DNA of 64,000 nt from Patescibacteria group bacterium (GTDB taxonomy: Bacteria > Patescibacteriota > Microgenomatia > Levybacterales > GWA1-39-11), in contig DASZRC010000003.1 of assembly GCA_035549315.1 (NCBI GenBank), positions 10,374 to 74,373 of the forward strand, written 5' to 3'. Positions 8,215 to 48,914 of this stretch are shown here, in pieces; within the stretch, counting starts at the first letter, position 1, and each line of letters opens with the position of its first letter. The translations under genes and the position numbers were made by a program. The notes beneath the pieces were generated by a model. It saw nothing but the letters and a program-made list of their open reading frames with translations. It searched no databases and had not been told where the DNA came from.

Positions 8215-9663
8215 TTAGGCGGCTATTTTTGCTCGACCTTCAGTAATTATTCTCTCCGTGATTGGAACTGCTTTACCAATGTATGTTCTTGGAGATTGTC
8301 CCATAATCTCATCTTTTAGTACATCTTTAATTGGTAGGCTATCTATTACCACTTTCCATTGGTCCCTAGATGTTATTTTAACTCCCCGAACTCTATCTTT
8401 TAGAATGTTGTATGCACCATCAACTCCTGCGACCCTAAGTCTTTGCTGAGCCCATTCGGACATTACGGCCCAATTTGAATCTAATGCCTCGCCAATTGCA
8501 TCAGTGTCAGGATAAACTGTTCTTAATCCTCTTAAAGCATTTGTGTAGGAAATTGCAGCTGTAGCATATACATTCGGGATAATATATCTTCTTAGTGCAC
8601 TATCCGAAAGATCCCTTTGAAGTCTTGATTCAGGAAGTCTATCTGCAAATATAGTAACATTACCGCTAGACAACTCTGCGTGTGCTTCACTATTTTCAAA
8701 TCTTATTGGATTTACCTTTTGTGACATTGTTGAAGAACCGATTGCACCTTTTATGACCTCCTGAGCCAACCAATCATCACTTATATATCTCCACATGTCC
8801 TGATCCATATCATGTACAACACCATTGATTCTTTGAACTATTTGAATCCTTTCAATAACATCTTCGTATGGGTTAGTCTGTGTACTAGCAGGGTTGTACT
8901 CTAAACCAAGACTTTCAACAAATTTTTGTGAGAAAGCAAGCCAGTCAACGTCTGGCTTAGTAGCTGTATGAGCAGAATGTAATCCCACTGCACCATTAAG
9001 CTTCCCCGTAAGTTTATGTTTTTTCATTTTATCTATTTCTCCTGCTACCCTACTACCAAAAACTGCAAACTCGTGTCCAAAAGTTACGGGTAAAGCGTCT
9101 TGTCCATGGGTTCTACCCATTATAGGTAATTCCTTATATTGATCTGCCTTATTAAACATGTCTTCTGCAACTCTTTTGGCAAGTGGTAAATAATTATTCT
9201 CTGTCGCTCTCTGGATATTTAATCTGAGAGCTAGATTATCAATGTCTTCTGAGGTTAGGCCAAAATGAACCATTTCTGAAAGATCTTCCAGTGAAGTTCC
9301 CGCAAATTTTTCCTTCATCCACAATATAACCGAGGCAACATCGTGATCCGTTCCTCCAGGAGACGCCTCAATCTCCTTGATTCTTTCACCATCTTTTAAT
9401 GTTAGGGATGGACCCATCCCCTCAAGTCTAACTCTCTCTTCGGGCGTCAATGTTCTTCCCGTAACTACTCCCTCATCACACAATGCAATTAAGTATCTGG
9501 CTTCAATTTCTGTACGCGTTGCCATTAAACCAAGTTCTGACGAATATTCTCTAAGCTGTTTTGTTTCTTGTGCGTACCTTCCATCAATTGGAGAAACTGC
9601 GGTCAAAGGATGAAACTCATCGAACCCTCTTTGGGAAAAACTTAATTCTCTTTCAAAAGCCAT
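8215..9663 (-). CDS. purB: Adenylosuccinate lyase
   Basis: SPIDGRY N-terminal motif, fumarate-lyase family signature region (GSSTMSQKVNP), length 482 aa. Confidence 0.8.
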   Translation of the reverse strand: MAFERELSFSQRGFDEFHPLTAVSPIDGRYAQETKQLREYSSELGLMATRTEIEARYLIALCDEGVVTGRTLTPEERVRLEGMGPSLTLKDGERIKEIEASPGGTDHDVASVILWMKEKFAGTSLEDLSEMVHFGLTSEDIDNLALRLNIQRATENNYLPLAKRVAEDMFNKADQYKELPIMGRTHGQDALPVTFGHEFAVFGSRVAGEIDKMKKHKLTGKLNGAVGLHSAHTATKPDVDWLAFSQKFVESLGLEYNPASTQTNPYEDVIERIQIVQRINGVVHDMDQDMWRYISDDWLAQEVIKGAIGSSTMSQKVNPIRFENSEAHAELSSGNVTIFADRLPESRLQRDLSDSALRRYIIPNVYATAAISYTNALRGLRTVYPDTDAIGEALDSNWAVMSEWAQQRLRVAGVDGAYNILKDRVRGVKITSRDQWKVVIDSLPIKDVLKDEIMGQSPRTYIGKAVPITERIITEGRAKIAA

Positions 9664-35048: not shown

Positions 35049-36149
35049 CTATCTGCCAATTTTGAATTCTACAACGTCACCATCTGCCATTATATAGTCG
35101 CGGCCTTCCATGCGGGCTTTACCATTTGCACGTGCGTTTTTCCAACCGCCAAGCTCCACAAAGAGAGGATATGAAACAACCTCTGCCTTGATAAAGTTTT
35201 TAACAAAATCTGTGTGAATCTCCCCTGCTGCAACCGGCGCACTACTTCCTACATTAATGGTCCAAGCCTTTACTTCTTTTGCGCCAGTAGTAAGGAAGGA
35301 AATTAAGCCAAGTTTTTCATATGCTTTTTGAATAAGACGCTCAAGTCCGGACTTTTCTACACCAAGCGCTTCAAGATATTCAGCTTGTTCTTCACCATTT
35401 AACTCTGCCAATTCTGCCTCAACTTTGGCACAAATTACTACAAATTTGGATTCCGGAAGACCCAAAAGCTCTGAATATTGCTTAACTACTTGGTTAATTT
35501 TCTCCTCAGAATAATCCGACTCTGAAACATTGAGAACTATTATTTCATCTTTGCTGCTAAGTAAATTTAGGTCTTTTATTGCGTCTAATTCTTCATCAAT
35601 TAGGCTTGCATCCCAAACGCTTTTACCCTCATTAAACGCCTTTTTAAGTTTTTCAACGGCTGCTCCTTTTGTTTTCTCAAGCCTTAGGGTTTTTTCATTT
35701 ATATTTTGAAGTGTTTGCATGTCAGAAAGAATTAATTCATAGCGAATTGTTTCATAATCTGACTTGGGGTCTACTGCTCCTTCTTTTATAACGTCTTTGT
35801 CTTCAAAAACTCTTACAACGTGGGCAATAATTTTTACTTCGCGGATATGGGATAAGAATTTATTACCAAGACCCGCCCCTTCACTGGCTCCTTTAACAAG
35901 CCCTGCAATATCAACAAATTCTACAGTGGCAGGCTTAATGGGTGGAAGGTTCGCCATTTGCTCTTCACTTTTTGTTATCTCTGCAAGCTTTTCTAAACGT
36001 TCGTCTGGAACCGGAACTATTCCAACATTTGGCTCAATTGTGGCAAAAGGATAATTTGCAGCCAAAGCCTGCTGCTTTTTAAGCAACGCATTAAATAATG
36101 TAGATTTCCCAACATTCGGCAACCCAACAATCCCAACTGACAAGTTCAT
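35049..36149 (-). CDS. ychF: Ribosome-binding ATPase YchF (Obg family)
   Basis: G1 motif (GIVGLPNVGKSTLFNAL), YPFATIEPN, C-terminal TGS domain. Confidence 0.85.
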   Translation of the reverse strand: MNLSVGIVGLPNVGKSTLFNALLKKQQALAANYPFATIEPNVGIVPVPDERLEKLAEITKSEEQMANLPPIKPATVEFVDIAGLVKGASEGAGLGNKFLSHIREVKIIAHVVRVFEDKDVIKEGAVDPKSDYETIRYELILSDMQTLQNINEKTLRLEKTKGAAVEKLKKAFNEGKSVWDASLIDEELDAIKDLNLLSSKDEIIVLNVSESDYSEEKINQVVKQYSELLGLPESKFVVICAKVEAELAELNGEEQAEYLEALGVEKSGLERLIQKAYEKLGLISFLTTGAKEVKAWTINVGSSAPVAAGEIHTDFVKNFIKAEVVSYPLFVELGGWKNARANGKARMEGRDYIMADGDVVEFKIGR

Positions 36150-36698: not shown

Positions 36699-37340
36699 TT
36701 ATTTAAACATTGAGGAGTGGTCGAGGATTATTCCACGAGCTAGTGTGTCTGCAAATTTTCCTGCTTGGTCAAAACCTTTTTTAAGAAGGTTACTCTTGTC
36801 TGTTGCATTTCCGGCTGCTACCGCATCAACTATTGCAAGCGTTCCGTTAACATGGTCGTTCATAAGTGATGTAATCGTTGAAGCTTTTAGGTTTTTGCTC
36901 GCAAGAGTTGTACCAAGATCTTTTGATATTTTTTGGAGGTTGGTCTTTGCACTATTCATTTTTGTTGTGTCATTGTCCTTTTTTGCTAAGGTGTAGTTCT
37001 TGTATTCAGTCATGTGCTGAGTCCAGAGCTTAACAAATTTGTTCTTCTTATCACTTCCATATACACTTTGAACAAGAGCTGCAATTTTCATTTCATTGGC
37101 ATCCATTAATTGCTCTAACCTTGTTGTATCATTGCCCTCATAAAGCGCAGTTAAAGTGACTCCACCCAATACCGTATGTTCGTGAAGTAACGCATTAAGA
37201 TTAACCCTAAGATTTGTTGCTTTAGAATTGAATGCGGCATCTATTCCCGGATTTGTTGCGGCTTGAGTACTGGGTGTAATAGCCAATACCCCTATTACAA
37301 GTGCAGCAAAAGAAACTAAAACTAAAATTCTATTTTTCAT
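36699..37340 (-). CDS. Secreted hypothetical protein with signal peptide
   Basis: MKNRILVLVSFAALVIGVLAITPSTQA signal peptide. Confidence 0.5.
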   Translation of the reverse strand: MKNRILVLVSFAALVIGVLAITPSTQAATNPGIDAAFNSKATNLRVNLNALLHEHTVLGGVTLTALYEGNDTTRLEQLMDANEMKIAALVQSVYGSDKKNKFVKLWTQHMTEYKNYTLAKKDNDTTKMNSAKTNLQKISKDLGTTLASKNLKASTITSLMNDHVNGTLAIVDAVAAGNATDKSNLLKKGFDQAGKFADTLARGIILDHSSMFK

Positions 37341-37447: not shown

Positions 37448-38794
37448 TTAATTAACCTTTACAAATTGTGTTTGAGACCACTCACCAGGCATGCAGTTAT
37501 TCATTCCGGATACTTTGAAGTACCAAGTTGTCGGAAATAAATAATTAATTGTATAAGGAATAACTCCGCCTGAGAAACCATAATTAAATGTTGTTGCAAA
37601 TTGGTTAGCATCGGGCGTAAATCCGTAAGAAATTGTATAGGCCGTATTTTGTCCGCTAACCGGTGCAAAATACAAAGTTGCATTGCTAACACCCGGCTTT
37701 ATTTGGAAAAGGTTAGGTGAACTCTGTGGAGCTGCCGCCGTACAAGATGTTGGCTGGTTAGGTGCTGAAGAAGCGGATCCATTAGAGTTAGTAGTTGGTG
37801 TTGGCGAACTATCGCTAATATAAAGACGGCCCCCATACGCTCCCGCAAGCAAGATTAGCCCATTACTACTCATACTAAGAGGTACCCATTCTTCATCTGC
37901 GGAACCAGCAGGCTGAGTTTCCGACCACGTGTCTCCTCCGTTGGTCGAAATATACAAACGACCAAAACCCTCTCCTACCAATATTGTCTGTCCATCGCTA
38001 CTTATACTTGACGCCGCCCAACTCTTATCTGTATTTCCAACAGGTTGAGTTTCTGACCATGTGTCTCCTCCGTTGGTCGAAATATACAAACGTGTATCAT
38101 CTCCTGCTAGGATTACTTGCCCATTACTACTCACACTTACTGTCTGCCAATTCTCATCTGCATTTCCAGCAGGTTGGGCCTCTGCCCAGGCGCCTCCACC
38201 ATTGGTTGTAATATACAAGCGTCCACCACTTACTCCCGCAACAATAACTTGTCCATTCCCGCTCATGTCAGCAGGAAGCCAATCTTTGTTTGTATTTCCT
38301 GCGGGACGTGTCTCAGACCATGTATCTCCGCCATTGGTTGTTAGATACAATCGCCCGCTACTTACTCCGGCCAATATTGTCTGCCCATCACTACTCATTC
38401 CACTTGGGTACCAAAAATTCTTATCTACGTCACCAGCAGGCTGAGTTTCCGACCATGTGTCTCCTCCGTTTTTGGAAATATAAAGACGTGCATCATCAGC
38501 AACCAAAATGACTTGTCCGTTGCTACTCATTCTAGCCATTTCCCAGTCTTGATCTGTATCGCCGGCAGGTTGGGTCTCAGTCCATGTATCCCCTGCATTT
38601 TTAGAAATATACAAGCGATCAGAGTTTCCGGCAATAACAGTCTGCCCATCAGAACTCATGGCGCTCCCTTCCCAATTGAAATCATCATTGCCAGCTGGCT
38701 GAGTTTCTTGCCAAGTAACAGCTGCATATGAATGCAAACTGAGGGAGAAAAATAAAATAATAGCTAAAAATGAGGATAGTAATACCTTTTTCAC
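37448..38794 (-). CDS. Secreted BNR/Asp-box beta-propeller protein with C-terminal FN3-like module (array member 1)
   Basis: Signal peptide; six repeats of I(S/T)xNGGDTWSETQPAG (BNR S-x-D-x-G-x-T-W). C-terminal module shared with the next three genes; it ends right after the module. Confidence 0.7.
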   Translation of the reverse strand: MKKVLLSSFLAIILFFSLSLHSYAAVTWQETQPAGNDDFNWEGSAMSSDGQTVIAGNSDRLYISKNAGDTWTETQPAGDTDQDWEMARMSSNGQVILVADDARLYISKNGGDTWSETQPAGDVDKNFWYPSGMSSDGQTILAGVSSGRLYLTTNGGDTWSETRPAGNTNKDWLPADMSGNGQVIVAGVSGGRLYITTNGGGAWAEAQPAGNADENWQTVSVSSNGQVILAGDDTRLYISTNGGDTWSETQPVGNTDKSWAASSISSDGQTILVGEGFGRLYISTNGGDTWSETQPAGSADEEWVPLSMSSNGLILLAGAYGGRLYISDSSPTPTTNSNGSASSAPNQPTSCTAAAPQSSPNLFQIKPGVSNATLYFAPVSGQNTAYTISYGFTPDANQFATTFNYGFSGGVIPYTINYLFPTTWYFKVSGMNNCMPGEWSQTQFVKVN

Positions 38795-38907
38795 TACATA
38801 TTAGTAAGCCATATTCCGAGGGATAAATCAAGAGTTTTGACCTTAAAAAACAATACAACTAATTAACTCTTACAAATTGTGTTTGAGACCACTCACCGGG
38901 CATACAG

Positions 38908-40491
38908 CTACCAACAAACGAATAGGAAACAGGATTTTTGAGGAGCAGGCTTTGGTTTTGTGACGTTTTTAGACTGTTGAGTCAAAATTTTTGTAGGAGC
39001 AATTGGCGTTGGCTTAGCAATTGGTAATTTTGAAGTATTTGCTCCTAAAACCGTTGTTTGTTTTGGAATTACACTCAAAATTTGAGAAATAATATTTTTG
39101 TAATATACTCCCCCATTTGTTTTGACTTGCATCGTGTTGCTCCAAGTGCCTATTCCACAATTGTTCTGGGCAAAAACCTTAAAGTAAACGTTAGAATTAG
39201 CTGGTAAATCGTTTATTGCATATGTTAAAACTCCGGTTGATGAACCTTGGTTTGTAAATACATTAAATTGATTGGCGTTGGAATTAAATCCATAGGATAT
39301 TAAATAGTTCTGGGAGTTTCCAACAGGAGAGAAGAAAAGTGTTGCTGCATTTTTAGTGGTATTTATCTGGAATAAATTAGGTGCGCCATTTGGTGTGGTT
39401 GAGCAGGTTGGCGTATTGTTTGAGTTGTTGCTCGAGCTTGAACCTCCTCCACCAGAAGTAGGAGTTGGAGTTGGCAAAAGATCTAAACCCAAATATAATC
39501 TATTGTCATAAGCTCCCGCGAGTAAGACCTGAGTATCAGATGACATACTGCCCAATCTCCAAGTTTTAGCTACATCACCACCGGGCTCCATCAAGTCCCA
39601 ACTAGAGCCCTGATTTGTTGAGAGGTACAAGTTATTTACTCCTCCAACAAAAAGGGTCTGTCCGTCTGAGGATACAGCACTAATATACCAGATATTATCA
39701 ACGTCTCCTGCAGGCTGCTCCTCTGTCCAATGATCACCTTCGTCTATTGAGAGATAAATTCTACTGTTTGAATCCACCAAGATCACATTACCATCATGTG
39801 AGGTACTTAAGCCAAACCACTGTTCATCTGTATCCCCCGCCGGCTGGATCTCCGTCCAAGAGTCCCCTGTATTTTTTGATATGTAAACTCTGGAATTAGC
39901 GACCACCATAACCTGACCATCTGATGACATGCTCGAACTAACCCAGCTTGAGTCAACATTTCCTACGGGCTGAACTTCAGTCCAATTATTTCCTCTGTCT
40001 ATAGATTTATACAATCTGCCACCGTTTATTCCAGCAAGCATAATTTGACCATCTGATGACATACTTGATAGACTCCAATTGAAATTACCAAGATCTATTT
40101 GTGTCCAATCATTTCCATAATTAGTAGACAAATATAGGCCTCCACCGTAAACACCTGCCAAAATTATTTGGCCATCTGATGACATACTTGTGGTATACCA
40201 AATTCGCTCACCTAGTCCACTTGGATCAATAGATGTCCAATTACTACCCCTGTCTGATGATAAATACAAACCGCCATACTGCTCACCTACTATAATTCTT
40301 TGTCCATCCGAAGACATTGCAGATGGGGTCCACCCATAATCCGCATTTCCCCCGGGTTGTATCTCAGACCAGCTTACTGCAGCAAATACTTTTATTGGAG
40401 TCGCAAAATAAAAAAACACTAAGAGCATTAGTAGCAGAATAAAAGAAGGTAATTTTTTGGGCATAACTAAATTTAGAATGTTCAGGATCAA
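38908..40491 (-). CDS. Secreted BNR beta-propeller protein with shared C-terminal module and Cys-containing C-terminal tail (array member 2)
   Basis: Repeats SSDRGSNW, SIDRGNNW, SKNTGDSW, SIDEGDHW. C-terminal module CSTTPNGAPNLFQINTTKN...FAQNNCGIGTWSNTMQVKTNG, K/P-rich linker, final KSCFLFVCW. Confidence 0.7.
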   Translation of the reverse strand: MILNILNLVMPKKLPSFILLLMLLVFFYFATPIKVFAAVSWSEIQPGGNADYGWTPSAMSSDGQRIIVGEQYGGLYLSSDRGSNWTSIDPSGLGERIWYTTSMSSDGQIILAGVYGGGLYLSTNYGNDWTQIDLGNFNWSLSSMSSDGQIMLAGINGGRLYKSIDRGNNWTEVQPVGNVDSSWVSSSMSSDGQVMVVANSRVYISKNTGDSWTEIQPAGDTDEQWFGLSTSHDGNVILVDSNSRIYLSIDEGDHWTEEQPAGDVDNIWYISAVSSDGQTLFVGGVNNLYLSTNQGSSWDLMEPGGDVAKTWRLGSMSSDTQVLLAGAYDNRLYLGLDLLPTPTPTSGGGGSSSSNNSNNTPTCSTTPNGAPNLFQINTTKNAATLFFSPVGNSQNYLISYGFNSNANQFNVFTNQGSSTGVLTYAINDLPANSNVYFKVFAQNNCGIGTWSNTMQVKTNGGVYYKNIISQILSVIPKQTTVLGANTSKLPIAKPTPIAPTKILTQQSKNVTKPKPAPQKSCFLFVCW

Positions 40492-40501
40492 ATTGCAACA
40501 T

Positions 40502-42373
40502 TTAGCAGCCTACTTTGAGGGTTTGGCCTACATTCAATTTGTTTGATGATAAATTGTTTTCTTGCATAATTGATTTATACTTTGCTCCGTTTCCTAATTT
40601 CAAGCTTGCTATTCCCCAAAGCGAATCACCCGCTTGCACAGTATAGTTTTCACATCTTGTTTTGGCCCCTAAAACCTTGCTAGTTTTTGCTCCAAGAACT
40701 GTTGTTTGTTTTGGTAACAAACTTAAAATCTGCGAGATAATATTCTTGTAATACACTCCTCCATTTGTTTTTGCCTGCATAGTATTGCTCCATGCGCCTT
40801 GACTACAGTTGTTTTGAGCAAAAACTTTAAAGTAAATTGTAGCATTAGATGGAAGGCTTCCAACTGTAAAACTTAAAACTCCTGTTGATGAGCCTTGGTT
40901 TGTCATAACATTAAACTGGTTGGCAGACGAATCGAAACCATACGAAATCTGATAATTTTGTGTGTTTCCAACCGGTGAGAAATATATAGTAGCCGAATCC
41001 TTTTTAGTATTTATCTGGAAAAGATTTGGTGATCCATTTGGTGTGGTTGAGCAGGTTGGAGTTATTCCTTGGTTCGGCGGCAAAGACACAGAACTGTTTG
41101 AATTAGAACCGGGAGAAGAAGTTGGAGTAGGATTTACCACATCCACAACACATCCCGTAGACTGAATTCCATTAGAAGTTGCAAATACATAATATTCACC
41201 GGTAGACGAATATGTAACAGTAGCTATTGAATTACCCGACCCGCTTGTATTCACCGAATCGCTACCACCTGCTAACCATGTGTAAGTTCCATCCCCTCCG
41301 CTTGCTGTAATTGTTGCATCCACAGACCCACCCGACAAAACAACGCTAGATGAAGATGGAGAGCAGGTAGGCTGAGATGGCGTAGGAGTCGGCGTTAAAG
41401 TTGGTGTAGGTGTTGGTGATGGAGTTGGGTTAGTAAATTTTTGCACATTATTTTTTGTAACATCACTAACAAATAAATTATTTGCGGAATCAAAAGCAAT
41501 ACCCTGCGGATTTTGAAATTGTCCGTCGCCTGACCCGCCAGATCCAATTTGCGCGATAAAACCTCCATCGCTATCAAATTCCTCAACTCGCTGATTTCCT
41601 GAATCGGTCACATATATATGCCCAAAAGAATCCATTGCAATATAATTTGGAGAGTTAAATTGTCCGTCCCCAGATCCTGAACCTCCCCATTTTTTAATAA
41701 ATGTTCCATCATAGGCAAACTTCTGAATTCTGTTGTTTCCATTATCAACTACGTAAACATTGTCTGCCCCATCCAAAGCTAGTGCCGTAGGACCATTAAT
41801 AAATTGCCCGTCACCCGATCCGTAAGATCCCCATTCCCTCACCTCACTAAAATCTGTCGCTGAAAATTCATACACCTTCTGTTCTTCAACGTCTGCTGCA
41901 TAAATATTTCCATGTGAGTCAAATGCTATACCGCCATATGCATTGAAATTTGATGCAACACCCTCAAGGTTTGAACCGTCTTGATCAAAACGGAAAATTT
42001 CTCCAAAATACCCGCCGGCTGATAAAAACATATAAGCGGAGACGTAAATCTTCCCATCAGAACCCAGCTTTACATCCACCGGAAGAACCTGACTAAAACT
42101 ATCACCCCACATCTCGAGCAGCTTCCATTGCTGATGGTACAATCCGATTGAATTAAACTCTTCAATTCGTTGATTATGTTCATCTGCCACATAAATATTA
42201 CCCGAACTGTCTATGGTCATACCCAAAGGAATATTTAAAAATCCCACAGCACTTCCTGATGAGGCAAATTTACTATCATATTGATAAGCTGCAAATACAG
42301 GAACGCTGCTTCTCACTATGAAAACAGTTACAAGACAAAAAACTAAAAATAGCGATAATATTTTTCTCATCAA
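40502..42373 (-). CDS. Secreted NHL-repeat beta-propeller protein with shared C-terminal module and C-terminal LysM domain (array member 3)
   Basis: NHL repeats (e.g. GSGDGQFNSPNYIAMD...IYVTDSGNQRVEEF), the same CSTTPNGSPNLFQINTKK... module, then YTVQAGDSLWGIA...GQTLKV (LysM). Confidence 0.7.
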   Translation of the reverse strand: MMRKILSLFLVFCLVTVFIVRSSVPVFAAYQYDSKFASSGSAVGFLNIPLGMTIDSSGNIYVADEHNQRIEEFNSIGLYHQQWKLLEMWGDSFSQVLPVDVKLGSDGKIYVSAYMFLSAGGYFGEIFRFDQDGSNLEGVASNFNAYGGIAFDSHGNIYAADVEEQKVYEFSATDFSEVREWGSYGSGDGQFINGPTALALDGADNVYVVDNGNNRIQKFAYDGTFIKKWGGSGSGDGQFNSPNYIAMDSFGHIYVTDSGNQRVEEFDSDGGFIAQIGSGGSGDGQFQNPQGIAFDSANNLFVSDVTKNNVQKFTNPTPSPTPTPTLTPTPTPSQPTCSPSSSSVVLSGGSVDATITASGGDGTYTWLAGGSDSVNTSGSGNSIATVTYSSTGEYYVFATSNGIQSTGCVVDVVNPTPTSSPGSNSNSSVSLPPNQGITPTCSTTPNGSPNLFQINTKKDSATIYFSPVGNTQNYQISYGFDSSANQFNVMTNQGSSTGVLSFTVGSLPSNATIYFKVFAQNNCSQGAWSNTMQAKTNGGVYYKNIISQILSLLPKQTTVLGAKTSKVLGAKTRCENYTVQAGDSLWGIASLKLGNGAKYKSIMQENNLSSNKLNVGQTLKVGC

Positions 42374-42388
42374 TTCAAAAAAGATTTA

Positions 42389-44008
42389 TTAAAGACAAAC
42401 AAAAAGAATGCAAGATTTTTTGGTTTGGATACCCAATACTTTTGATTTGGGTTTTACCACCGGTATTTTCTTTATGATTGGTTTTGCAACGTGGGTTTTA
42501 ATAATCTTTTTTGTTGAAGTAACTTTTGAAACTGGAGTTGAGGATGTTTTTGCTCCAAGAACTGTTGTCTTTTGCGGAATAATACTTAAGATTTGGGAAA
42601 CAAAGTTTTTATAATATATTTCTCCATTTGTTTTGACTTGCATTGTGTTGCTCCATGCGCCTATTCCACAATTGTTTTGTGCAAAGACTTTAAAGTAAAC
42701 ATTAGAATTAGTTGGCAAATTGTTTATTGTATATGTTAAAACTCCGGTTGATGAACCTTGATTTGTAAGCGCGTTAAATTGGCTAGCATCAGAATTAAAC
42801 CCATATGAAATTTGATAGTTCTGTGCACTTCCCACAGGAGAAAAATATGTAGTTGCCGAATTTTTAGTGGTATTTATTTGAAACAAATTTGGTGATCCAC
42901 TTGGAGTTGTTGAACACGTCTGTGTTGTCCCTTTGTTTGGTGGTAAGGATTCCGGCCCTTTGGAATTTGAACTTGGAACAGATGTAGGAGTTGGTGTTGG
43001 GGTGGGATTTGGCGATTGCCAATATAAAACTGGGTAGCTTGATCCGTTATTAACGGTGCTCCAAGTATTTACAAAATCCCAAGACGTCAAAGGCGGATTG
43101 GTTATAGTGTAGAAATAAGAAATATTGTTGGTTATGCGGTTGCAGCCGGTGTTTCCACTTGTATAACAAGACATAAAACCACCCGACACATCATTCCAAT
43201 ATCCATTACTAACTGTTCCGGAACTCATAAGACCAACCATTCCGGCAACAAATGAAACACTCACATATGTCATAGTGGTAAAAGAATTTGATGTTGAAGC
43301 ACTAGAAACAAATCTGCCGGCTATTCCGCCAACATTCTGCCCATGCGTGATACTACCGGTTGAATAACTATTTGTAATGCTTCCGCCACTCATGGTTCCT
43401 GCAATTCCACCGGTATTATTTTGGTTCAAAGTAGAATTCACAATGTTGCCGGAATAATAACTATTACTAACAACGGCAGATGTACCCTGACCAAGCAATC
43501 CCCCCATGACAGGGGCAATAAAATTTGCAGCACTTCCATCCATACTTGCCTTACTATATGAGTTTGTAATACTTCCGCCCGATACAACCGCCGCAAAACT
43601 TCCCATTTTTGAAGTATCACCTTGCTGGGTAAGACTTCCGCTCTCATAACCAATATTTGTAATTAGCCCTCCTGTTCCCAAAGTTTGAAATATTGCTACT
43701 CCGTTTTCATTACTGTTAATTGTGAGATTAGTAATTTTATGGCCTCCACCATCTAGCGTACCGGTGAAAAAATTACTGGTTGTATCTCCTATTGGAGCAA
43801 AGCTAAACCCATTACAATCCACATCGTTCATCATAAGGTAATTGGCGGTAAGGTTGTTGGAAATTTCATGAAGCTGTGAACAAGTCGTAATTTGGTATGG
43901 GTCGCCGCTTGTTCCATTGCCGCTCCCTGAAAATGCAAAGGCTTTTGAAGGTAAAACAAAAATTAAAATTAGGATAATTCCAACAAAGAAAAAACGCAAA
44001 AAGCGCAT
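42389..44008 (-). CDS. Secreted GLUG-motif beta-helix-like protein with shared C-terminal module and Cys-containing tail (array member 4)
   Basis: GSGNGTSGDPYQITTCSQL start and G-rich GGIAG/GGSITNSY repeats (GLUG-like), the shared module, K/P linker, final KSCILFVCL. Confidence 0.65.
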   Translation of the reverse strand: MRFLRFFFVGIILILIFVLPSKAFAFSGSGNGTSGDPYQITTCSQLHEISNNLTANYLMMNDVDCNGFSFAPIGDTTSNFFTGTLDGGGHKITNLTINSNENGVAIFQTLGTGGLITNIGYESGSLTQQGDTSKMGSFAAVVSGGSITNSYSKASMDGSAANFIAPVMGGLLGQGTSAVVSNSYYSGNIVNSTLNQNNTGGIAGTMSGGSITNSYSTGSITHGQNVGGIAGRFVSSASTSNSFTTMTYVSVSFVAGMVGLMSSGTVSNGYWNDVSGGFMSCYTSGNTGCNRITNNISYFYTITNPPLTSWDFVNTWSTVNNGSSYPVLYWQSPNPTPTPTPTSVPSSNSKGPESLPPNKGTTQTCSTTPSGSPNLFQINTTKNSATTYFSPVGSAQNYQISYGFNSDASQFNALTNQGSSTGVLTYTINNLPTNSNVYFKVFAQNNCGIGAWSNTMQVKTNGEIYYKNFVSQILSIIPQKTTVLGAKTSSTPVSKVTSTKKIIKTHVAKPIIKKIPVVKPKSKVLGIQTKKSCILFVCL

Positions 44009-44548: not shown

Positions 44549-44664
44549 CTAAAATCACCTCCCTAGATTCGTCTTCCTATAATACCACTATTACAATTCA
44601 AATTTAAATGCATTTGCATGAGGATTACCAATATTTACTTGCATATTGGGTTTATAATATAAGT

Positions 44665-45243
44665 ATGGGAAGAGTCACTCTGTTTATAATAGTAATCATA
44701 TTATTAATTGGAGGAGGAATTTATTTTCTAAGACAATCTCCTAAACCTATTACTCCTGCTATTTCCCCCACCCCAACTATTACAGCTACCAATACGCCTG
44801 CAGAAAACTCTTTCTGTAATCCATCTGATCTTGTGGGAAATATTGTTTTTAATGGCGCTGCCGGAAGCATATATGGCAACCTAACGCTTAAGAATGTTTC
44901 TAACAAAACGTGCACAATTGATGGGAGCAATTTTGTTACAGCAAGTTTTTCCGCGCAAAATATTAGTGTAGTCCAACAAGGCCAAGCCGGTCCGGACACT
45001 ATTGCCCTTACTCCAAATCAAACTGCTTACTCTCAGATTAGATATCAAAATGGGCCACAATGTAGCAGTCCTATAAAAACAACTCCTGTTATTTTTTCTT
45101 ATCAAATTTCTTCACTTGGAACAGTTGACTTCCTAGGTCAGAATGGCAGTAAATCGCAAAACATTACAACCTGTACAAAGCTCAGCGAATCAACAACCGT
45201 ATGGGTTTGGAATGTTTCCAAAAGCCCAATAACTCCTCAATAA
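44665..45243 (+). CDS. Membrane-anchored secreted protein, DUF4232-like; start trimmed to MGRVTLF
   Basis: TM anchor, PT linker, Cys-containing beta domain (CNPSDLVG...GAAGSIYGNLTLKNVSNKTCTIDG). Confidence 0.45.
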   Translation: MGRVTLFIIVIILLIGGGIYFLRQSPKPITPAISPTPTITATNTPAENSFCNPSDLVGNIVFNGAAGSIYGNLTLKNVSNKTCTIDGSNFVTASFSAQNISVVQQGQAGPDTIALTPNQTAYSQIRYQNGPQCSSPIKTTPVIFSYQISSLGTVDFLGQNGSKSQNITTCTKLSESTTVWVWNVSKSPITPQ

Positions 45244-46714: not shown

Positions 46715-47347
46715 TTAACAAGAAGCAGCAGGAATATTGATGATAACGGTTGTAAATCCTAATGCTTTTAATAAGGCAGTCAATTGATTTCTTCCGTTTT
46801 TTGCAGCCTCATCAAGAATATTTTCTTGACAAGCAGCAGCTTGGATAGAAGTTTGTGCAGCTTCGCGGGCTTTTGATTCCAAGTCCTTATCGCCCTTGGT
46901 CAATATTCCCGTTGATCTGTCATAAACTCTGGTTTGCCCTTCATCCAATGTTGTGAATAGCACCTCAGGAGCCGGTAAGTCTAGCGTTATTGACTCACCA
47001 TTTATATGGACTGAGCTGCCGGTAAGTTTTGATAGATCAAAACCGGCAATAACTTGCCCGTGAGCTATAAGAAGAAGCTTATCTCCAAAAAGTAACTGCG
47101 AAAACACATTTCCACTGTTTCCAGCATCAATAATTTTTTCTATTGTAAAAGACACAGTCTCATAACGATTAAGCGCCTGGAGCTGCTTAACAACTGCTGT
47201 TCTATTGGTATTAATAAAATACTTATTTCCACCAAAAACTCTAAAGAACAGGAGAACAATCGCAATTATTCCTACTGCTGCTAAAGCCAAAATTGTTATT
47301 CTTAAATACCTATCTATAGCTAACTTCTTGGTTAAACTTGAAAACAT
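46715..47347 (-). CDS. Membrane-anchored DUF4230-like protein
   Basis: N-terminal TM helix; size and pattern typical of DUF4230. Unverified. Confidence 0.4.
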   Translation of the reverse strand: MFSSLTKKLAIDRYLRITILALAAVGIIAIVLLFFRVFGGNKYFINTNRTAVVKQLQALNRYETVSFTIEKIIDAGNSGNVFSQLLFGDKLLLIAHGQVIAGFDLSKLTGSSVHINGESITLDLPAPEVLFTTLDEGQTRVYDRSTGILTKGDKDLESKAREAAQTSIQAAACQENILDEAAKNGRNQLTALLKALGFTTVIINIPAASC

Positions 47348-47368: not shown

Positions 47369-48088
47369 TTAATTTGGGGATTCTCCGTAGATAGTAACAG
47401 TGGTCCCTGGGTTTTCAGCAGTTGCATAGGTAGTATTCCCCTGAGTTGCAGGATCTGCCCAGTTATAAATCTTCTCCGCATCCTCCGGCCTCATATTTAC
47501 ACAACCATGGCTCATGGGGTATCCAAAATTATTGTGCCAGTATGCTCCATGAATACTAAATCCGTCTCCTTTTGGAACCTTGTCGTTGTAGAAAAACATG
47601 GTGTACGGAACATTTGGAAGATCATAATAATCTGCTCCGCTTCCACCACTCATCCTGGTATAGAGTAACTTTATCCAAATCTTGAAATCTCCTGTGGGAG
47701 TTGGGTGCCACTTGCCGGTTGCTACCGGGAACTCATAAACCAAATCTCCGCCTTGGTAGGCATAAAGTTTTTGATTTGTAAGGTCAACATATATATGTTT
47801 TTTCTCGCTTGTTTCTCCCAAAACCTGGGTCTTCTGAGGAATACTTGCTATATACTGTGGCTCGTCTACTTTTTGGCCATTAAAAATGGCTTCTTGATTT
47901 GGTTCATAGTTACCGGATAAGTCCTTTATACAGCTTATTGAGTTGGCGCAAAATGGCTTATTAAAAGGTGTTAGATTAAGAAAATAGCCCAAGCCAAAAA
48001 ACAAAACAACACATGTTAAAACAAGCAAAAAGCCGTTCTTTCTAACTATAAAAAATCCCCTCTTTTTTGCCTTCTTTTTCTTGGCCAT
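47369..48088 (-). CDS. L,D-transpeptidase (YkuD fold) with N-terminal membrane anchor
   Basis: Catalytic motif HGAYWHNNFGYPMSHGCVNM (His...SHGC). Confidence 0.75.
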   Translation of the reverse strand: MAKKKKAKKRGFFIVRKNGFLLVLTCVVLFFGLGYFLNLTPFNKPFCANSISCIKDLSGNYEPNQEAIFNGQKVDEPQYIASIPQKTQVLGETSEKKHIYVDLTNQKLYAYQGGDLVYEFPVATGKWHPTPTGDFKIWIKLLYTRMSGGSGADYYDLPNVPYTMFFYNDKVPKGDGFSIHGAYWHNNFGYPMSHGCVNMRPEDAEKIYNWADPATQGNTTYATAENPGTTVTIYGESPN

Positions 48089-48239: not shown

Positions 48240-48914
48240 ATGTTTAATATTTTCTTTACATATATCATTGCTCTATTCGTTTTGATGAAGGGTAACCACC
48301 CCGTGGTAGACCCTGGCCATATTTTGGCGCAAAGAGAATTTTCACTAACCGATAGGTACAACAACAAATTTGTTAATGATGTTTTTAAAGATAATATTCT
48401 TTTAACCATTAACTATCTAACCGGTGTGGAAAAGCCGACTACCAAGGTTAACTGGACCAACGTTAATAAACCATTTACATACAAAATGGTCTTAAAACCT
48501 GGAGAGACCTTTGCCTTCCACGATGATGTATTGCCACAATATGAAGGAAAGGTTACAAAAACTTCTAACGCACATTTTAACGCCCAAGAAGGTTTTAAAT
48601 CTGATGGATATTTGTTTGGAGACGGAGTTTGTCATCTTGCCTCACTCCTCTATTGGACTGCAAAGGATGCAGGACTTAATACCCTTGCACCAACAAGACA
48701 TGATTTTGCAAAAATTCCAGATGTTCCGGAACAATTTGGTGTGTCAATTTATGATACTCCCGGTAAAAATAATGGCGACGAACAACAAAACTTGTATATT
48801 ACAAATAACAAGCCGGCAACTGTGGCTTTTGAGTTTAACTATGATGGTCATGACCTTAAAATTAAGGCTGTCGAAGAAAAAGAAGACAAGCTTACCTACT
48901 TGCCAAACGAATAA
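48240..48914 (+). CDS. VanW-family protein
   Basis: GDGVCHLASLLYWTAKDAGL matches the VanW core G(G)GVCQxSTTLYNAxxxAGL. Confidence 0.6.
   Translation: MFNIFFTYIIALFVLMKGNHPVVDPGHILAQREFSLTDRYNNKFVNDVFKDNILLTINYLTGVEKPTTKVNWTNVNKPFTYKMVLKPGETFAFHDDVLPQYEGKVTKTSNAHFNAQEGFKSDGYLFGDGVCHLASLLYWTAKDAGLNTLAPTRHDFAKIPDVPEQFGVSIYDTPGKNNGDEQQNLYITNNKPATVAFEFNYDGHDLKIKAVEEKEDKLTYLPNE

Follow-up and report, generated by a model that had tools for sequence, protein, structure and literature searches.

Little is known of how proteins are attached to the unusual envelopes of the Patescibacteria and of marine and terrestrial Thaumarchaeota, which are abundant and mostly uncultured. One locus that raises this question in a concrete form lies at positions 37448-44008 of a 64,000-nucleotide stretch of a patescibacterial contig (hereafter the window, meaning that whole stretch), where four adjacent genes, designated m4, m3, m2, and m1 in the order of transcription, encode proteins that have a C-terminal module in common and differ in what follows it. 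Two of them, m2 and m4, end in a very short element (hereafter the tail), in which two cysteines enclose four hydrophobic residues, and the question is whether this tail is a disulfide-stapled membrane anchor or the substrate of an unknown enzyme. The two tails proved to be weak-consensus variants of a commoner motif, KKxCFLWWCW, which closes exported proteins of both Bacteria and Archaea. It is possible, though doubtful, that KKxCFLWWCW-COOH represents a new sorting or anchoring system common to Patescibacteria and ammonia-oxidizing Thaumarchaeota; this claim covers either form, a tail that is processed or attached by an enzyme or a self-inserting, disulfide-closed Trp ring.

The motif was derived from 36 tails that had been chosen through the module alone and were tabulated with position -1 as the last residue. 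Both cysteines are present in all of them (36/36 at -7 and 36/36 at -2), and exactly one residue follows the second cysteine in every case. The other positions are strongly biased, with K at -10 (23/36) and -9 (30/36), F at -6 (29/36), L at -5 (32/36), W or F at -4 (19/36 and 15/36), and W at -3 (25/36) and -1 (26/36). This gives the consensus KKxCFLWWCW at the extreme C-terminus and the broader form K-K-x-C-[FIL]-[LF]-[WF]-[WVIF]-C-[WLF]-COOH; the homologue P0001, for example, ends KKSCVLFICL. An earlier reading of this DNA, made from its letters only (the sequence-only reading), had considered that absence of the tail from homologues elsewhere would point to truncation artefacts; the tail was found in homologues outside the window and is more strongly conserved there. 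Within the window, a six-frame scan showed m2 and m4 to be the only tail-ending genes, a further match at 36966 being a non-gene fragment. The two window tails are conserved at the protein level, because synonymous codon positions differ between them.

A profile of the module, the adjoining junction, and the tail was searched against 1.84 billion representative proteins, yielding a family of 2365 proteins (E up to 1e-3), 1070 of which remain at a cutoff of 1e-10. A word-indexed protein search with the C-terminus of m4 gave a single homologue, and the larger family came from the exhaustive profile search. Among the top family matches, the heads, as read from the sequences, comprise propellers, putative LamG-like lectin domains, beta-helices, and hydrolases, and only rarely does another folded domain follow the module. 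The C-terminal classes were counted in the best 150 of the 2365 representatives: a C-x4-C-x-COOH tail after a P/T/K spacer in 37, a LysM domain between two cysteines in 37, a stop at the module or junction in ~37, a short amphipathic tail such as SFFQKIIDFIQNVFK or GFWSWLKSLFGM (hydrophobic moment mostly 0.5-0.7) in ~14, and a transmembrane helix followed by KRRKK in 9. No C-terminus among these 150 carries both LysM and the Cys tail; thus, a single C-terminal slot is occupied by one or another envelope anchor. Tails of the types SFFQKIIDFIxxxFK and GFWxWxKSLFG, amphipathic and preceded by a P/T spacer, were observed in P0037, P0048, P0051, P0104, P0107, P0124, and others, and the short amphipathic tails of the family are probably in-plane membrane anchors. 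In m3, as in the 37 representatives of the LysM class, the protein usually ends with the second of the bracketing cysteines (..KVGC), and this bracket suggests a disulfide-clamped LysM.

The tail was also sought independently of the module, by two scans for the DNA pattern C-F-[LF]-W-W-C-W-stop. The first scan, over one genome per GTDB species, identified 60 loci, ~33 of which end long open reading frames (ORFs), nearly always after a spacer and a lysine. The second, over metagenome contigs, gave at least 120 matches, at least 97 of them with a true stop, and at least ~60 close long or end-truncated ORFs after removal of duplicates. Matches in short ORFs, or with TGG in place of the stop, were discarded as chance (~25 of the 60 genome matches and ~35 of the 120 metagenome matches listed). 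The FN3 (fibronectin type III) module, described below, is carried by 21 of the ~33 genome loci that end long ORFs, and the record titles of the module-bearing loci name Shapiro-, Woese-, Gottesman-, Collier-, and Parcubacteria. Nine records (L002, L008, L016, L025, L026, L035, L049, L050, and L061) are titled 'uncultured Pseudomonadales' or 'Gammaproteobacteria' (TPA_asm). Their genes that combine the FN3 module with the tail are of Patescibacteria type, their GC content is 0.32-0.46, and L026 and L035 have a neighboring gene in common with Patescibacteria-titled loci; because of this low GC content and these neighboring genes, the labels may be wrong.

Other tail proteins lack the module altogether. 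In the genome scan they comprise FG-GAP-like repeat proteins (L018 and L036), an M14-peptidase-like protein (L039), a BNR protein with a different C-terminal domain (L054), and, at five Nitrosopumilaceae/Thaumarchaeota loci, a protein with a signal peptide, an ~85-residue helical region, and the end ..KFCFLWWCW. The last of these, a small exported protein of ~110 mature residues ending FCFLWWCW (L004, L009, L038, L045, and L060, together with P0152-P0180), is predicted to form a helical hairpin (predicted local distance difference test, pLDDT, >90 for residues 41-110) and has no Pfam match. It forms a family of 29 clusters in a collection of 5.8 billion proteins, with divergence to 43% identity, and the end FCFLWWC[WF] is present in 23 of the 23 sequences inspected from these clusters. 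The metagenome scan added several passengers, which were named from motifs read in the sequence where Pfam was silent: a family with an HExxHxxGxxH zincin motif and Big_3_5, TTR-like, TSP3, and TPR domains, a second zincin-motif family, a cupredoxin-like protein, and a hydrolase-like protein followed by fn3 (Pfam, 2e-7) with the tail directly after it, all without the module of the family described above. The low-GC contigs that carry them are probably thaumarchaeal, because they encode plastocyanin/amicyanin-like proteins, CFI-box-CTERM proteins, and an AglJ-like glycosyltransferase.

Pooling of both scans gave at least ~95 non-redundant canonical tails written in 33 synonymous codon combinations. 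Among the matches listed, the tail is followed by TAA in 71 cases, TAG in 18, and TGA in 6; since all three stops are used, stop-codon recoding is not an issue. Lysine stands two residues before the first cysteine in 71 of the 95 tails, and 53 of the 61 complete tail ORFs begin with a hydrophobic, signal-like N-terminus (both counts again from the matches listed, the latter from both scans). The tail is under selection at the protein level and is an independent, portable C-terminal element of exported proteins, extending beyond the FN3 family and beyond bacteria.

A few individual loci deserve separate mention. Two metagenome contigs, L083 and L138, which are probably thaumarchaeal, contain clustered genes for secreted proteins whose signal peptides are nearly identical (MKPIVIIAIAFVLL..) and which show three endings side by side, namely CFLWWCW, CFI-box-CTERM (NF041770), and a recurring ..F[ML]VENNIIQIP-type end. 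In L057, a Hyphomonadaceae metagenome-assembled genome with a GC content of 0.57, a TadE-like protein with long acidic repeats and an internal CNFWNC ends CFLWWCW; the match may be due to chance or may mean that the tail also occurs in Proteobacteria. In Woesebacteria GW2011_GWB1_39_10 (L011 and L103), a 35-codon ORF ends ..GQNHCFLWWCW and has no in-frame upstream passenger; it may be a frameshifted or decayed tail gene.

Surface proteins that combine propeller heads with FN3 and LysM domains are nothing unusual, but the tail is. Pfam and NCBIfam returned no family for the tail peptides at E up to 10, and NCBIfam found neither a CTERM sorting model nor a type IX secretion system (T9SS) C-terminal domain in the full-length window proteins at E up to 1. 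An LPXTG motif is missing from the final 60 residues of every window ORF, and the tail is without a transmembrane helix. PEP-CTERM, PGF-CTERM, GlyGly-CTERM, and MYXO-CTERM do not describe the tail either, which has four hydrophobic residues between its cysteines and no NCBIfam match; the sequence-only reading had already set it apart from LPXTG and from the first three of these. A CaaX prenylation box does not fit cysteines at -7 and -2 in 36/36 tails on proteins with signal peptides, and the 69-position model of CFI-box-CTERM (NF041770) matched neither the tail peptides nor the window proteins nor L154. A search with a 40-column tail alignment returned 89 candidates, without scores. In the literature, full-text search for the motif strings found no paper, none was found joining Patescibacteria, sorting signal, and C-terminal, and wider searches gave no relevant result. 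The tail differs in construction from every known C-terminal sorting signal, and neither a model nor a paper was found for it.

What the tail does is best explained, in our tentative judgment and at somewhat less than an even chance, by a disulfide-closed aromatic loop that, with the adjacent lysines, would serve as a peripheral anchor in the cell's own membrane. The proteins are laid out from the N- to the C-terminus as a variable head, a PT-rich hinge, an FN3 domain that is peculiar to the family and carries one Cys pair, a short amphipathic junction, and an interchangeable anchor. After export, the two tail cysteines would form a disulfide and close a six-residue aromatic ring, which, together with the neighboring lysines, would partition into the outer-leaflet interface of the cytoplasmic membrane. 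The C-terminus would then be held at the membrane, the ~80-residue spacer would span the wall, and the head would be displayed. Such an anchor would need no dedicated enzyme and would occupy the same slot as the amphipathic-helix, transmembrane-helix, and LysM endings.

Several observations speak indirectly for this reading. On the Wimley-White interfacial scale, the summed free energy is -7.7 kcal/mol for CFLWWCW, -5.1 for the m2 tail, and -3.0 for the m4 tail, and none of the ~105,000 heptapeptides in the best 150 family proteins is more favorable than CFLWWCW. Weaker tails are found on more basic spacers (Spearman rho 0.54, p = 6e-4, n = 36, relatedness uncorrected): in the 40 residues upstream, the five weakest tails have a net charge of +7 to +12 (four of them +10 to +12) and canonical tails one of -1 to +5, with both window tails at the weak and basic end. 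Additive hydrophobic and electrostatic contributions of this kind are typical of peripheral membrane binding. The distance from the second cysteine of the module to the Cys tail has a median of 80 residues (interquartile range 76-84, n = 56), compared with 72.5 for amphipathic tails and 55.5 for LysM, and a longer spacer fits a tail that lies deeper, at the membrane, than a wall-binding LysM. In the AlphaFold2 model, the m2 tail is a tight hairpin with its two cysteines facing each other (pLDDT ~73). The lysine that stands two residues before the first cysteine in most of the tails listed, the even, locally paired cysteines of the mature window proteins, and the lack of a recurring neighbor gene at 123 tail loci agree with the same reading.

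A number of points weigh against the membrane-anchor reading. The charge correlation ignores kinship, and three of the five most basic cases are near kin of the window proteins. The hairpin was not reproduced in the AlphaFold2 model of the archaeal protein, in which the tail is a low-confidence helix extension (pLDDT 44-56). The m4 tail, at ~-3 kcal/mol, would anchor weakly alone, and extracellular disulfide formation in these organisms is an assumption. Bacteria and Archaea keep exactly the same heptapeptide at a constant distance from the C-terminus, which seems more than a physicochemical anchor alone would require and is better explained if a protein recognizes the tail. Finally, the survey of neighboring genes covered ~4-7 kb per tail gene, so that an enzyme may be encoded elsewhere.

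These last points lead to the alternative in which the tail is a recognition signal, used in both Patescibacteria and Nitrosopumilaceae, for an unknown processing or sorting enzyme that cleaves, lipidates, or covalently links it, an explanation that we regard as rather unlikely. The near-invariance of the tail, which always has both cysteines and exactly one residue after the second, would be expected of such a signal, and so would the occurrence of one heptapeptide on unrelated passengers in both Bacteria and Archaea, an archaeal tail that is constant in all inspected sequences of a protein otherwise diverged to 43% identity, and portable-tag behavior like that of LPXTG, PEP-CTERM, and PGF-CTERM. 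On the other hand, the tail has neither the transmembrane helix nor the trailing basic cluster found in every known sortase, exosortase, archaeosortase, or rhombosortase signal, with only four hydrophobic residues between its cysteines and no matching NCBIfam or Pfam model, and compensation between hydrophobicity and spacer charge is unexpected for a pure recognition tag. The sequence-only reading had suggested that the tail is lipidated or cleaved; no enzyme that could act as a partner was found, and ORF clustering over 30 and then 123 tail loci revealed no neighboring gene family that recurs across independent passenger contexts within the surveyed ~4-7 kb. The window contains no sortase or Dsb-like motif in its 64 kb, a negative of little weight for so small a part of the genome. 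An ICMT/PEMT-family membrane methyltransferase gene was observed at 1820-2383 of L001, a syntenic Patescibacteria contig, where it immediately follows the m1-like gene; it was rejected as a processing partner of the CaaX kind, being absent from the window and not recurring near other tail loci.

A second alternative, which we consider unlikely, is that the tail is a docking or cross-linking element, an aromatic knob or an exchangeable disulfide, which binds an envelope component or oligomerizes and does not insert into lipid; an S-layer, a pilus, a wall polymer, and the FN3 module of a paralogue were considered as partners. The high sequence specificity of the tail agrees with docking, as does the moderate AlphaFold2 confidence of the m2 tail despite the disordered spacer before it, and m1 and roughly one in four family members, which lack an anchor but keep the FN3 module, may use protein-protein contacts. 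However, no partner was identified, no protein is known to be common to archaeal and patescibacterial envelopes, the amphipathic and transmembrane helices in the same slot point to the membrane, and polybasic compensation suggests an anionic surface over a specific protein pocket.

Insertion into a host-cell membrane, which would make the tail the attacking end of an episymbiont adhesin and not an anchor, is highly improbable. The window is patescibacterial, cultured Patescibacteria are episymbionts, and small disulfide-cyclized cationic or aromatic peptides are membrane-active; yet the LysM domains and transmembrane helices of relatives in the same position fix the C-terminus to the producing cell, and the same tail occurs on many proteins of the Nitrosopumilaceae, which are free-living ammonia oxidizers without a host, so that the anchor itself appears to be unrelated to a host. 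That the tails are truncation or frameshift ends or chance similarity, as two short copies in the window might have suggested, is ruled out by their recurrence (37 of the best 150 family representatives) and by the synonymous variation and use of all three stop codons in at least ~95 non-redundant canonical tails.

The tail genes of the window stand in an array whose features are collected in Table 1. The gaps between the genes are 15, 10, and 113 nucleotides in the order of transcription. The protein of m4 is identical to GenBank HVZ66738.1, named there 'fibronectin type III domain-containing protein', and that of m3 to HVZ66737.1; both were deposited from an 82-kb contig of a metagenome-assembled genome titled 'Patescibacteria group bacterium'. 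The true start of m3 is likely to be the ATG at 42370, where the deposited protein P0003 begins, and that of m2, as read from the sequence, the ATG at 40464.

Table 1. Features of the four-gene array, in positions of the window (aa, amino acids; nt, nucleotides)
Feature	Positions	Strand	Description
m4	42389..44008	(-)	539 aa; signal peptide, GLUG-type G-rich head, PT hinge, module, junction, polybasic spacer, tail
FN3-like module of m4	42626..42919	(-)	aa 364-461, Cys365 and Cys447
Junction of m4	42542..42616	(-)	YYKNFVSQILSIIPQKTTVLGAKTS
Polybasic spacer of m4	42419..42541	(-)	41 aa; the 40 residues upstream of the tail have a net charge of +12
Tail of m4	42392..42418	(-)	K-S-C-I-L-F-V-C-L, then TAA stop
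m3	40502..42373	(-)	623 aa; signal peptide, NHL beta-propeller, weak Ig-like segment, module, junction, Cys-bracketed LysM
Weak Ig-like segment of m3	41165-41380	(-)	aa 332-403; after the NHL propeller
FN3-like module of m3	40763..41056	(-)	aa 440-537
Junction of m3	40679..40753	(-)	
LysM domain of m3	40505..40654	(-)	bracketed by Cys574 and terminal Cys623
m2	38908..40491	(-)	527 aa; signal peptide, BNR/sortilin-type propeller, module, junction, K/P spacer, tail
FN3-like module of m2	39115..39408	(-)	aa 362-459; structure predicted for this copy
Junction of m2	39031..39105	(-)	
K/P-rich spacer of m2	38938..39030	(-)	31 aa; the 40 residues upstream of the tail have a net charge of +7
Tail of m2	38911..38937	(-)	K-S-C-F-L-F-V-C-W, then TAG stop
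Relic of m1-type gene end	38860..38910	(-)	51 nt from the m2 stop codon; 46/51 identical to the last 51 nt of m1
m1	37448..38794	(-)	448 aa; signal peptide, BNR/sortilin-type propeller, divergent module; no anchor
FN3-like module of m1	37451..37747	(-)	aa 350-448

The overall plan of the array follows what the sequence-only reading had described, that is, four co-oriented genes with signal peptides and differing heads, a two-Cys C-terminal module followed by a conserved junction, and swappable ends; the ORFs, alignments, and Pfam matches agree with it on each of these points. All four N-termini read as hydrophobic, Sec-type signal peptides with A-x-A-type cleavage sites, marked by a slash in ..SYA/A, ..VFA/A, ..VFA/A, and ..AFA/F. 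None of the four proteins contains the bacterial lipoprotein (Lgt/Lsp) lipobox L-[AS]-[GA]-C or a cysteine at +1. The mature proteins have even numbers of cysteines that, as paired from the sequences, fall in local pairs, which is consistent with disulfides. Among the heads, those of m1 and m2 match Pfam Sortilin-Vps10/BNR (57.6 and 55.3 bits, cutoff 33) and, in their propellers, BNR (41.5 bits, cutoff 27), that of m3 matches NHL with four repeats (105.7 bits, cutoff 20), and that of m4 contains one borderline GLUG repeat (20.7 bits, cutoff 20.5). A role of the heads as adhesins or lectins is plausible as a candidate function only.

The module, 98-99 residues long with both cysteines invariant, is present in 4/4 proteins with the pattern TC[ST]TTP.G.PNLFQI ... 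NNC..G.WS ... K[TV]N; its identity is 75-83% within m2, m3, and m4 and 49-57% between these and m1. Pfam fn3 (PF00041) matches it below the gathering score (17.1-20.1 bits against 25; 17.1 bits for m4). AlphaFold2 was run on the last 168 residues of m2 with a 35-sequence alignment, so that the fold was predicted on the m2 module alone, to which the m4 module is 83% identical. The model has a mean pLDDT of 83, exceeding 90 over residues 10-100, which form a beta sandwich; beyond the module, a short strand and a helix (108-113) lie in the junction, followed by a low-confidence spacer. When the m2 module was compared with the PDB by Foldseek, the top matches were all FN3 domains (DSCAML1, titin Fn3-56, and DCC FN), with E ~1e-4 and a target TM-score up to 0.83. 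By its predicted structure, the module is a divergent FN3 domain, in line with the FN3/Ig fold and Cys pair that had been expected from the letters.

After the module, the junction of m2, m3, and m4 has the consensus YYKN[IF][IV]SQILS..P..TTVLGA.TS, with the family-wide form YYKNFLSRILSIFPKQTTVLG. The LysM of m3 (PF01476, residues 577-621) scores 41.6 bits in Pfam (cutoff 20.9, E = 1.2e-10), and m3 is predicted to bind peptidoglycan through this Cys-bracketed domain. The stop codon of m1 stands directly after the module, and its syntenic homologue in L001 (456 residues) ends alike. At 40655-40705, m3 contains a tandem duplication, VLGAKTS-KVLGAKTR, and a second K[VI]LG motif is found 8 residues before the first tail cysteine in m4 (42419-42450), P0001, and P0004; in this subfamily, one VLG..T..C context thus precedes both LysM and the tail.

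The array also preserves a trace of how its ends were combined. The relic that begins at the m2 stop codon encodes, by local alignment with m1, an ending of the type ..CMPGEWSQTQFV[KR]VN-stop, and it still spells ..CMPGEWSQTQFVRVN-stop, in another frame. The head of m2 is nearest to that of m1 (45% identity) and its module to that of m4 (83%). Because of the relic and the combination of an m1-like head with an m4-like module, we infer that an m1-type gene lost most of its module to an incoming m4-type cassette, which ran from module and junction through spacer and tail to the stop codon. Anchors within the array thus read as having been exchanged by recombination, with the relic as the scar of one exchange, and the locus illustrates the shuffling of heads and anchors within one gene array, scar preserved. 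The syntenic locus L001 keeps the order of a tail gene followed by an anchor-less m1-like gene.

Just upstream of the array, envelope-related genes encode a DUF4232 protein with a PT-rich linker (44608-45243), a DUF4230 protein (46715-47347), a YkuD L,D-transpeptidase (47369-48088), and a VanW-like protein (48240-48914), and this neighborhood seems to serve the cell envelope and peptidoglycan. At distances of 1-5 kb from tail genes, a YchF/Obg-type GTPase gene is found in the window (35049-36149), in L001 of the same lineage (7242-8342), and in the Nitrosopumilaceae small-protein locus L004 (557-1750), which is probably a coincidence between housekeeping genes. A scan of the array for promoters and terminators scored no better than shuffled sequence, plasmid records gave no match to the window sequence, and an Rfam scan found two distant tRNAs and nothing else.

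A tag of seven residues would allow the surface proteome of these organisms to be predicted by a simple sequence rule, including the proteins that episymbionts show to their hosts, and the tail is a candidate minimal anchoring tag for protein display. If the system proposed here is real, it would be the first signal of its kind to lack a transmembrane segment, and a self-inserting Trp ring would be a new class of anchor for bacterial membranes and archaeal tetraether membranes alike.

Among known systems, LPXTG, PEP-CTERM, PGF-CTERM, PEFG-CTERM, GlyGly-CTERM, and MYXO-CTERM resemble the tail as short, portable C-terminal elements of Sec-exported and otherwise unrelated passengers, and the likeness extends to a frequent P/T-rich spacer before the element and to several paralogues per genome. 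LPXTG is served by sortase, PEP-CTERM by exosortase, PGF-CTERM and PEFG-CTERM by archaeosortase, and GlyGly-CTERM by rhombosortase. Whereas these signals comprise a motif, a full transmembrane helix, and a basic cluster and have a cognate enzyme, the tail has seven residues, its lysines stand before the hydrophobic part, no enzyme gene is linked to it at the 123 loci, and NCBIfam holds no model of it. CFI-box-CTERM (NF041770) is likewise a Cys-initiated hydrophobic C-terminal element of secreted thaumarchaeal proteins, some of them encoded on the same contigs as tail proteins; however, it starts C[FL]IATATYGS, continues for ~60 further residues to a transmembrane helix and an RFRK end, and has no similarity to CFLWWCW. 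As the identity of the tail, to which the common 'CF' start might point, it is ruled out, being an element of ~70 residues plus a transmembrane helix. The T9SS C-terminal domain (Por_Secre_tail) resembles the module as a family-specific beta sandwich that forms the last folded domain on diverse cargo, but the module has an FN3 fold with separate anchors after it and no NCBIfam T9SS match at E up to 1, and Patescibacteria are not known to possess an outer membrane or a T9SS.

Closer parallels to the favored peripheral anchor are found among membrane-binding peptides. In K-Ras4B, a polybasic stretch and a CaaX box (KKKKKKSKTKCVIM) likewise place a lysine run directly before a Cys-containing hydrophobic C-terminus, with a trade-off between charge and hydrophobicity; the CaaX cysteine, however, is at -4 and the protein is cytosolic, undergoing prenylation, proteolysis, and ICMT methylation, whereas the tail has its cysteines at -7 and -2 and is exported. 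Bactenecin, the 'Rana box' of frog peptides, and cyclo-RRWWRF are cyclized cationic or aromatic membrane-active peptides that have in common with the tail a small one-disulfide Trp/Phe ring with basic flanks and the chemistry of the membrane interface, but they act as free peptides on target cells, whereas the tail is the covalent end of proteins of 110 to >1600 residues. The C-terminal amphipathic helices of PBP5 and PBP6, exported enzymes of E. coli, are membrane anchors and correspond to the favored reading of the tail as an enzyme-independent, peripheral, outer-leaflet anchor at the extreme C-terminus. While the Cys tail is too short for an amphipathic helix and depends on its two invariant cysteines, relatives within the module family carry amphipathic tails in the same slot, with similar spacer lengths.

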